From a virus: a stretch of 62,562 bases of DNA. Positions 6,001-9,000 of this stretch are shown here, piece by piece. The first letter of the stretch is position 1, and each line of letters starts with the position of its first letter. A program made the position numbers. Location of the stretch: UHGV virus genome UHGV-0106067; one strand, 5' to 3'.

Positions 6001-9000
6001 GGTCATACCAATAGCAATAATATCAGGGTAATTGGTGAACTGAAGAAGTGCGTTGGCATAATGGACTGCGCCATTCACCGCGTATCCATTAATATTTTTA
6101 AAATTCCATTCTTTTCTGGCATCTTTGTTCTCAATAATACCGTTGCTGCCAAGTCTGATAAGCCTGTCCTTGTAGCCTTTATACTCGATGAGAACGGGAT
6201 ACTGCTTGCCGTATTTGTCCTTAACAAGGAGTTTTACGTCGGGACGATTACCGCCTGCGCCGCCATTTTTCGAAAAATAAGCGTCCAGTGCGTTATCGAT
6301 CTCTCCGTTAAGTGATGCATTCTGCAACTTGTAATCAAGCCTGTAAGATTTAAGCCATGAGTTCGCCAGTTCGGTAATTTCCGGCTCAACAGATTTTACA
6401 GACTTTCTTGATTTACTGCTGGTCGCTGGTCGCTGGTCGCTGGTCGCTGGTCTGGCAGCATAAAATCATCCTTTTATGAAAATCAACGATTTTTGAGCAC
6501 TCGCACACAAAAAATTACCGCATTGGTTGCAACGACAACCTGCATTTTGCGGAGCATATGACAAATAAAGTACGGGTGCGTTGAGGATGCCAGACACATC
6601 AGAGGTGGCGGGAGATTACTCCCCTGCCTGGTCTCTTACTTCTCAGATTCGTAGTCTACGAAGACAGCGACCTCCGTCTGGCCGGTTCGGATTCGTACCT
6701 CGCAGAAGTCTTTCCTCGTTACCAGTGCTATCACTACGACGGTAATACAGATGACGATCAGGGCGATTAACATCGCCTTTTGCTGCTTCATAGCCTACTT
6801 CTCCTTGCCTTTCGGCACGTAAGAGGCTAACCTAAGTTTGTAAGTCATAGATTTGGCCTCAGATTAATGTTAAGCGTCCTGCAAGACGCGTAATGTTAAC
6901 TGGGGCTTTTCTCTGTCTGCCTTACGGCTGCATGCCCGAGGCAGACAGCCTCAAGCACCCGCAGCTATTCTACAGTAAAAACTCGCGCTTTCAATTTCCC
7001 GCACGTCCGGCAAACTGACTGGCCTGTGATCCTGATGGTTCACGCTCAACGTACCTGTCCATTTCCAGCTTTACTCCCTGCATGATCAACATCCCCTCAA
7101 TAACACCTTCTGCTTTTTGCAGTACCCGCCCGGCCCAGCAATCAGAGCGCCCATGCTTACGGCCCAGTGACATAAGCGTCATCCCGAACACATAATAATC
7201 ATACAGAAAATCATGCAAATCGCTGTTGTTGACGTTCAGTTGCGCCATGCAATTGCTGATAATCAGCGCATCGTCATCGGTACACTGAGGCCGTGATTTA
7301 ACCTTTGACGGGATCAGCCCCTTAAATCCGGCGGCAATGGGCGACCAGCTCACATCCTCATGATTATTGGCCACCCATGCGCCCCAGCGTTCAAGCACCT
7401 GCTGAATATCACGCATCAGAGTCTTTACCCTTATCCCATCCACGATGGACCATAAGGACACCGTTGACGACGGCGTGCCGTTTGCCTTCTTTATCGCCAA
7501 TATATTTTCTGACCGTGGCACGATTACAGTTCAGTATTCGGGCCACCTCGGTCTGATTTCCATATGCCTCAACAAGCATGTCAGGAATGATTTTTACGGT
7601 GAACGTCATGCGGCCTCACTTCTGCTGTTTCGCAGGCCTTTAAATTTCTGTTGATACTCTGCCTTGATCGCCTTGCACTCTTCGACAGTCCAGCGGTGGC
7701 GACTATGGTTTGATTCGATTTCGTCTACTGCTTCCTGCCCGATGCGGTTAATCAGTTCGACGCGATACGGAACGAGATTTCCGCTTTTGTATTGGTTACA
7801 CACCACGCATTGCTTATGGATATTGCGTTCATCAAATCTGAGCTGAGGTGCCGCAGCTGTTGTACGGTAATGGCCAGCATCCCACTGGGCTGAATCTAAC
7901 GTCCCGCATGAAACACACGGCAAATGACGGTCCCGCTCCCTGATATAAGCATTCACAGCCTGTTGTGCCTGCTTAATCCAGTAACTGCGGGGCTGTAAGT
8001 CCCTCCTGCGCGCTTTCAGCTTGTCTGCCTGCTCTTTTGCTGAAGTTATCGCCTTTTCTTTTCTGACCAGTTCCAGTGCGCACTGACCACAGCAAACTTT
8101 CTGATATGAGCGGAACGGCACAAACGAGGAGCCGCACACTTTGCATTTTTTGGGTTTACGTTGCTTCATCATCACCTCAGAAAAACGACAGCAGGCGGTT
8201 ATTCAGTTCAGGGCTGTTTGAGCGCCCAAACACATGCTTTAACGCGGCATTAATTATTGCGTTGTAGCAACGTTCAAACTCATCCTGATCCATATTCGCG
8301 TAACTCAGGCTTTTTGCCCGATATCTCACCTCGCCTCTTATGGTTGTGACCACATCATAGAACCCGGCAAGAATTGTCAGATTTTTACGAAACTCATCAA
8401 ACTGCGTCGCTTCATCAGAGAATTCGTATCCAGCATGTTCAGCGCACCAGTACTGAAAGCAGAAATTAAGAAAAGCGAACATCTTCCGGTGAAAAGATGG
8501 GTTACGGGTAAGTTTTGCTTCCAGTGTATACAGCTCACCGTTTTTAAATTTTGCCAGTCGGGGTAAATCGCGCTCATACGCCGGTACAAATACGCCATTA
8601 GCCGCCTTGATCATCTCTATTTCCATCAGGCAGCCTCCGCTTTGAATTTGCGCGTCAACACATGTTCACGGGCTTCACACCCCTGAATGAGCATGTCGTT
8701 AAAATCCGGCAAGTCAGGCCAGCGAATGCTGACCTTCTCAACGTCATTACGACTCATGAGATTCTTATGCCCACATTTAAAGGCAGCCGCCAGACCTGCG
8801 CCGTGCTCATCATTGTCTGCAAAGATAATCAGGTGATTAACGCCTGGTGGCGCAATAAACTTCTCCATAAAACCGGAGTTCATTGTTGACCACACATTGC
8901 AGCGGAAGATTTGACGGCATGAAAGCGCAGTTTCGATACCCTCGGCTATCCCCAGAGTGGACGACACCGGATACAGGCGTATTGCCACCGATTTGGCATG

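Follow-up and report, generated by a model that had tools for sequence, protein, structure and literature searches.

UHGV virus genome UHGV-0106067, a 62,562-nt stretch referred to here as the window and to which all coordinates refer, carries a toxin gene of the Hok family that abuts the antiterminator gene Q. On the minus strand, ninG (7606..8175), ninH (7409..7609) and Q (6991..7422; 143 aa plus stop; Pfam Phage_antitermQ, E = 9.8e-48) are followed by hok (6636..6791), an open reading frame (ORF) of 51 aa that matches Pfam HOK_GEF (PF01848) with E = 7.1e-22 and 77 bits against a cut-off of 22. PADLOC contains no Hok model and returned no Hok match. We describe here the anatomy and homology of this locus, its conserved RNA structure and where the phage has its late promoter pR'. 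The locus is very probably an autonomous type I toxin–antitoxin cassette of the hok/sok type, belonging to the hokW subgroup and provided with its own promoter.

The original prediction had described the 51-aa product as a near-exact HokD/RelF. The ORF is as predicted, but its identity to HokD/RelF of K-12 is 43/51, and HokW of phage 933W is closer, with 47 identical positions out of 51 (92%). Similarity to 933W also extends well beyond the coding sequence. A 408-nt block (6566..6973, minus strand), comprising a -10 element, a transcription start near 6960, the mRNA leader, hok, the 3' untranslated region (UTR) and the fold-back inhibition element (fbi), is 91% identical at the nucleotide level to the hokW/mokW/sokW locus of 933W.

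The conserved cassette and its promoter

We fetched 96 related loci from viral and bacterial collections. The boundaries of the block, from just 5' of the -10 to just 3' of the fbi sequence CCTCAACGCACCC, are common to most whole-locus copies (about 90 loci), and the cassette was found in more than 25 contexts without a Q gene. Of 80 viral loci retrieved with this Hok, only six are Q-linked, and the remainder are spread over the more than 25 contexts of other kinds. A Hok scan of genome contigs yielded 16 loci, nearly all from Escherichia, Shigella and Kluyvera, and added little diversity. Single genomes contain up to nine hok-matching places.

A near-consensus sigma-70 promoter had been predicted at the end of Q, and it is present (6967..6994, minus strand), with a -35 TTGAAA at 6994..6989, a 16-nt spacer and a -10 TAGAAT at 6972..6967. 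It matches the consensus at 10 of 12 positions, and the stop codon of Q (TGA, 6993..6991) lies within the -35. The scan alone does not single out this site beyond chance (one site against 0.6 ± 0.9 expected in shuffles). The promoter is nevertheless credible because about 90 homologous hok loci have this -10 and start conserved at their head: TAGAAT (or TAAAAT or TAAGAT) plus the start sequence GGGTGCTTGAGG is retained in every hok context. The sequence 5' of the -10 varies with the genomic context, and most contexts still show a TTGnnn-type hexamer at 16–18 nt; the TTGAAA of the window ties for the best consensus match among them. The -10 and the start, present in more than 25 contexts without Q, belong to the hok cassette and not to pR'.

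The hok mRNA, its leader ORF and the predicted antisense RNA

The 5' leader of the hok mRNA (6786..6960, minus strand) matches Rfam RF01794 ('sok') over the full model (positions 1–157, 6960..6786) with 118.4 bits (gathering score, 59). The alignment is hok-sense, with GGGUGCUUGAGG at one end and the hok AUG at the other. A match to the antisense RNA itself was considered and ruled out, as the model aligns hok-sense and ends at the hok AUG. A 'sok antitoxin' match to RF01794 marks the strand of the hok leader rather than the antisense strand and is prone to mis-annotation.

The predicted full-length hok mRNA folds with z-scores of -5.6 and -4.3. Folding for a long-range pairing between the translational activator element (tac) and fbi, suggested in the original prediction, returned this helix: the first 12 nt of the mRNA (tac, 6960..6949) form 12 pairs with 6586..6574 (fbi) in the minimum free energy, centroid and 54-sequence consensus structures. 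The 3' UTR elements (6574..6628, minus strand) also include a hairpin at 6628..6607. On the 54-sequence alignment, 99.2% of the pair cells are paired, and 13 compensatory pairs were counted, against 4.4 ± 1.3 in shuffles (none of 500 reached 13) and 2–3 in slid controls. Compensatory changes were seen in both the leader helices and the 3' UTR hairpin. The 12 tac–fbi pairs are kept at 100% over 53 distinct sequences, through invariance or G-U changes.

Within the leader lies a short ORF (6795..6848, minus strand) of 17 codons, which corresponds to a truncated mok. As predicted, it starts at the ATG at 6848 and ends at a TAG (6797..6795) that is separated from the hok ATG (6791) by a single GCT, and it contains the Shine–Dalgarno sequence of hok (AAGGAG, 6806..6801). 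Its own GAGG Shine–Dalgarno sequence, 5' of the ATG, and the ATG itself are almost unchanging across 54 homologues. In 933W the corresponding frame does not stop before hok but continues into it; its 70-aa product, HokW extended in frame, carries the annotation mokW. The TAG is shared by the lineage of the window (the window, phage PhiR12_3, E. coli E2855 and loci L006, L007, L009 and L010), whereas nearly all relatives have CAG, including a Q-linked sister lineage that is 92% identical. Among the other loci examined, TAG was seen only in a Kluyvera locus (L100). The TAG base occupies a bulge, an unpaired column, of the helix that sequesters the hok Shine–Dalgarno sequence.

On the opposite (plus) strand we predict a sok promoter (6805..6833), with a -35 TTGCCT at 6805..6810, a 17-nt spacer and a -10 TAACCT at 6828..6833. 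Both hexamers are the same as those of sokW in 933W, and mutation of this -10 has been used to silence sokW (primers YO-421/422; Takada et al. 2021, PMC8621323). The predicted Sok-like antisense RNA (6840..6913, plus strand; about 74 nt) takes its coordinates from the annotated 71-nt sokW. Its predicted shape (-28.7 kcal/mol, z = -4.7) is that of a long hairpin between a single-stranded 5' tail, which lies over the AUG of the leader ORF, and a U tail.

The cassette is about 90% conserved, and its most variable part is found around the mok start, at alignment columns ~107–128 (window ~6855..6836). This stretch is the segment that pairs with the 5' tail of Sok. Such variation could prevent cross-reaction between multiple hok/sok copies in one genome.

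The late promoter and the accessory island

The hok promoter lies where a lambdoid pR' would be expected, and the annotated pR' of 933W likewise overlaps the stop codon of Q. It had been called pR'-like, but it has no resemblance to the pR'/qut of phages with a related Q. When the regions downstream of Q in 933W and BP-4795 were compared with the window by blastn, their pR'/qut sequences matched nothing near 6994..6900, and the match was instead found at 3219..3120 (minus strand), with 86–88% identity over 100 nt. The pR' homologue located there (3122..3204, minus strand) has a -35 TTTACA at 3204..3199, a 16-nt spacer, a -10 TATCAT at 3182..3177 and a hairpin plus T run at 3144..3122. Its promoter (3204..3177) matches the consensus at 10/12 positions, and it is 88% identical to the pR'/qut region of 933W. 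With 933W and BP-4795 it shares the TATCAT -10, the initial transcribed region, including the qut-like GGTTACATT, and the hairpin. Differential RNA sequencing of Sakai Sp5 located the start of pR' 258 nt upstream of the 3' end of tR' (PMC7547250). Counting back from the T run in the Sp5 sequence places the start 6–7 nt past TATCAT, which fits this -10.

The genes that follow the two promoters differ. After the pR' homologue come the STnc100 RNA (3025..2809) and a nanS-p-like esterase (628..2601), then endolysin and Rz on the other side of the permuted ends of the window. What follows the hok promoter is hok, then a terminator-like hairpin and a restriction–modification system of type IIG. PhiR12_3 and E. 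coli E2855 have a matching layout, with the pR' motif about 4 kb past hok. Judged from sequence, the real late promoter of the phage is the pR' homologue at 3204..3177, and hok is not under pR'. The proposal that hok is the first late gene is therefore not borne out, given a pR' homologue 3.8 kb downstream of hok and late genes placed after that promoter. The idea that hok has colonised the junction between Q and the late promoter holds in a loose sense.

STnc100 (Rfam, 149 bits) begins about 145 nt past the pR' homologue and has a strong terminator at 2840..2819. By analogy with StxS of Stx phages, this small RNA may be the 3' part of a short pR'–tR' transcript. No tRNA genes were found after pR' in the window, unlike in 933W and E2855. 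Searched against the PDB, Q matched only Q21, and so distantly (36 bits) that what is known of the Q binding site cannot be carried over.

As far as ...MDRYVERE (~7039), the Q protein is 70–73% identical to Q of 933W and BP-4795; it then diverges, so that the last ~15 codons (7038..6994) differ from those of 933W-type Q. Similarity to 933W breaks off at ~7039 and is picked up again at 3219, so that, compared with the 933W layout, 7038..3220 is a segment that has been inserted or has replaced other sequence. This segment contains the new 15-aa tail of Q, which carries the -35 of the hok promoter, followed by hok/sok, the terminator-like hairpin, an (ACCAGCG)n tract and the type IIG restriction–modification genes. 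On this comparison, a 3.8-kb accessory island headed by hok/sok separates Q from pR' in a 933W-like phage lacking stx. Of 5426 complete E. coli genomes, 29 have the new Q tail, which PhiR12_3 has as well, and 29 have the Q–hok junction. Alleles of Q with this tail but without hok, which might date the insertion, were thus not indicated among these genomes (29 versus 29).

The terminator-like hairpin with its T run (6509..6552, minus strand) was read from the sequence and folded; a simple terminator scan made no call for it on the minus strand. The remainder of the island (3212..6461, minus strand) consists of an ATG, the heptamer tract, a type IIG restriction-methyltransferase (4366..6327 as listed, minus strand; PADLOC REase_MTase_IIG, E = 6.4e-228; Pfam N6_Mtase) and a specificity subunit (3212..4306, minus strand; PADLOC Specificity_II, E = 9e-21; Pfam Methylase_S). 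The (ACCAGCG)n tract (6458..6417, minus strand) follows the ATG at 6461. The methyltransferase frame is open upstream through the tract, and from the listed TTG start the PADLOC profile lacks its first ~35 positions. The tract has six units in the window and 10, 17, 32, 68 or 84 in near-identical relatives, and the ATG at 6461 is in frame only if n = 1 mod 3. Together, the tract and the type IIG genes look like a phase-variable restriction–modification system in a prophage. PGAP annotates a 'YXWGXW repeat' protein on the opposite strand at the tract.

Proposed mechanism and biological role

For transcription, toxicity, the action of Sok and the biological role of the locus, we infer from R1 hok/sok and hokW–sokW. 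The insertion in the 3' end of Q would have replaced its last ~15 codons and displaced pR' 3.8 kb downstream. With the real pR' at that distance, Q would not control hok as a late gene; the place of hok is at the end of the delayed-early pR transcription unit. A constitutive sigma-70 promoter of its own would start an mRNA of about 400–455 nt at ~6960, which pairing of the 5' tac with the 3' fbi would hold untranslatable. Trimming of the 3' end would then permit translation, solely by way of the short upstream leader ORF. The convergent and short-lived Sok-like RNA (6840..6913, plus strand) would cover the start codon of that ORF, stopping translation and marking the duplex for RNase III. Loss of the prophage, its induction, or an infecting phage that shuts off transcription would each end the supply of Sok; the stable hok mRNA would then be translated and the 51-aa Hok would depolarise the inner membrane.

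HokW is toxic and localises to the inner membrane, and it is neutralised by sokW RNA in a partly RNase III- and Hfq-dependent manner (PMC8621323). After mitomycin C, sokW RNA is lost; HokW production is RecA-dependent and precedes endolysin by about 1 h, and HokW gives a two-fold gain in Sp5 phage release and faster lysis (PMC8621323). How induction removes Sok was left open by Takada et al. (PMC8621323). In LF82, a hok moron of a prophage ranks with the most strongly transcribed genes of the lysogenic state (PMC9928086). By analogy, a role of the window cassette in prophage stabilisation or in lysis, as put forward in the original prediction, is plausible; candidate roles are addiction to the prophage or the island, exclusion of other phages and help in lysis.

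The cassette is co-directional with the N-antiterminated pR operon and stands at its end, so induction would drive polymerase from Q through the cassette. We offer only tentatively, as a rather doubtful proposal, that this polymerase might run head-on into the sok promoter, silencing Sok, generating additional 5'-extended hok mRNA and timing Hok to the synthesis of Q. If true, Hok would act as a built-in lysis-timing or suicide switch, the TAG of this lineage would turn mok–hok coupling into termination–reinitiation, and the basal level of hok mRNA would be higher owing to the near-consensus -35 that comes from the tail of Q.

Weighing the alternatives

Several observations weigh against an intact and regulated hok/sok cassette. 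Matches to the NCBIfam Hok models stay under the cut-offs (51 bits versus 73). Covariation was sought for the tac–fbi helix and none was found, the helix being invariant; covariation therefore speaks neither for nor against the helix, whose support comes from conservation and energy. The near-consensus -35 could upset the usual balance between a weak hok and a strong sok promoter. The TAG in place of CAG may alter the translational coupling of mok and hok, and codon 4 of hok is changed from CAA to TAA in two of seven close copies (L009 and L010, both IMG/VR contigs). The last two points bear on the possibility that the cassette is a decaying, non-functional relic in which the TAG uncouples and silences the translation of hok. 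Several chromosomal hok loci of K-12 are decaying relics of this kind, and K-12 hokD lacks the whole leader. Still, the hok ORF is unbroken in the window, PhiR12_3, E2855, L006 and L007, and Hok/Gef is annotated under the match in each listed near-identical E. coli genome. The promoter, tac, fbi, sok promoter, Sok hairpin and the Shine–Dalgarno sequence and AUG of the leader are all intact, and even L009 and L010 keep all regulatory elements despite the nonsense codon, which could reflect either decay or escape from toxicity. The TAG itself falls in an unpaired bulge column 3 nt 5' of the hok AUG, a spacing that appears compatible with termination–reinitiation; ribosomes stopping there can probably still open the helix and re-initiate, which would keep the coupling. 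We therefore regard a relic as unlikely.

Two further explanations concern what the promoter drives. It might be mainly the lysogenic promoter of the downstream restriction–modification genes, the hok mRNA being the long leader of a joint operon. The cassette and the type IIG genes are co-oriented, the downstream sequence is the same in all fetched copies that extend beyond hok, and no convincing separate promoter was found 5' of the ATG of the restriction–modification genes. However, the hairpin and T run at 6552..6509 separate these genes from hok, and elsewhere an intrinsic terminator directly follows the cassette; such an arrangement seems to us very unlikely. Less probable again, to the point of being hardly tenable, is that the promoter at the Q stop is pR' or its replacement, with hok as the first gene of a Q-antiterminated late transcript. 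Its position, corresponding to the annotated pR' of 933W, and its 10/12 consensus match would suit such a promoter. Yet more than 25 contexts that lack Q have its -10 and start as parts of the hok cassette, and the sequence resembling the pR'/qut of 933W and BP-4795 (88% identical) is at 3219..3120. Downstream of the hok promoter are hok, the hairpin and the restriction–modification system rather than late genes, which come after the promoter at 3204. An autonomous hokW-type cassette with its own promoter accounts for the locus best. A strong promoter at the stop codon of Q is not necessarily pR', and in this phage lineage the island keeps Q and its late promoter apart; this matters for the prediction of late-gene or Shiga-toxin expression from Q/pR' typing.

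Other hok and antisense RNA loci in the window

The original prediction had also pointed to another hok-family gene in the same phage, and we confirmed it. This second locus (40565..40854, minus strand) consists of a 46-aa ORF (40565..40705; Pfam HOK_GEF, E = 4e-8) and a leader that matches Rfam sok with 42 bits, under the gathering score. It is divergent, adjoins a lom/ail-like gene (40938..41669) and is common in Stx/933W-like phages (198 phage records). In the early-left region (16002..16189, plus strand), adjacent Rfam matches to isrK (61 bits) and C4 antisense RNA (77 bits) were detected. Pairs of isrK and C4 RNA also occur in P1/P7-type immunity and in the Gifsy prophages of Salmonella.

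Comparison with known systems

Plasmid R1 hok/sok, described by Gerdes and co-workers, is the paradigm of type I toxin–antitoxin systems. The window locus has in common with it the Hok peptide, a mok-type frame that lies upstream, a predicted Sok that covers the start of mok, and the tac–fbi pairing. It differs in being phage-borne rather than plasmid-borne, in its divergent sequence and in its truncated mok frame. We know of no prophage hok copy for which post-segregational killing has been shown. Another lambdoid prophage copy, hokD (relF) of K-12 Qin, encodes a protein identical at 43/51 positions, but hokD follows relBE and has no hok leader, tac, mok or sok elements upstream, whereas the window locus has all of these. 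With the pR'–qut–tR' region of 933W/Sp5, the source of the StxS RNA (Sy et al. 2020, PMC7547250), the hok promoter shares only its position relative to the Q stop.

The closest system is hokW–mokW–sokW of 933W/Sp5 (Takada et al. 2021, PMC8621323), likewise carried by 933W-like phages, with which the window cassette shares the -10, the start and tac, the sok hexamers, the Sok hairpin and fbi. HokW itself is 44% identical to R1 Hok (PMC8621323). The two loci are differently placed: in the 61.7-kb 933W record hokW is found at 58.4–58.8 kb, past the giant tail-gene ORF and a long way from Q, whereas the window cassette abuts Q. They also differ in the -35 (TTGAAA, 10/12 overall, in the window versus TTTGCG/TTGCGG, 8/12, in hokW), in the mok frame (stopped by TAG in the window, in frame into hok in 933W), in the sequence of the region of the Sok 5' tail and in the 3' flank, which in the window includes the hairpin and T run. 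Our literature searches found no description of hok placed after Q. The locus is a known system at a new location, hok/sok after Q, and adds a further insertion site for the very mobile hokW-type cassettes, which keep their -10 and start and acquire a new -35 in each context. With its truncated mok, its stronger -35 and its co-orientation with the early operon, it is a natural variant that can be compared with hokW–sokW on the removal of Sok at induction.

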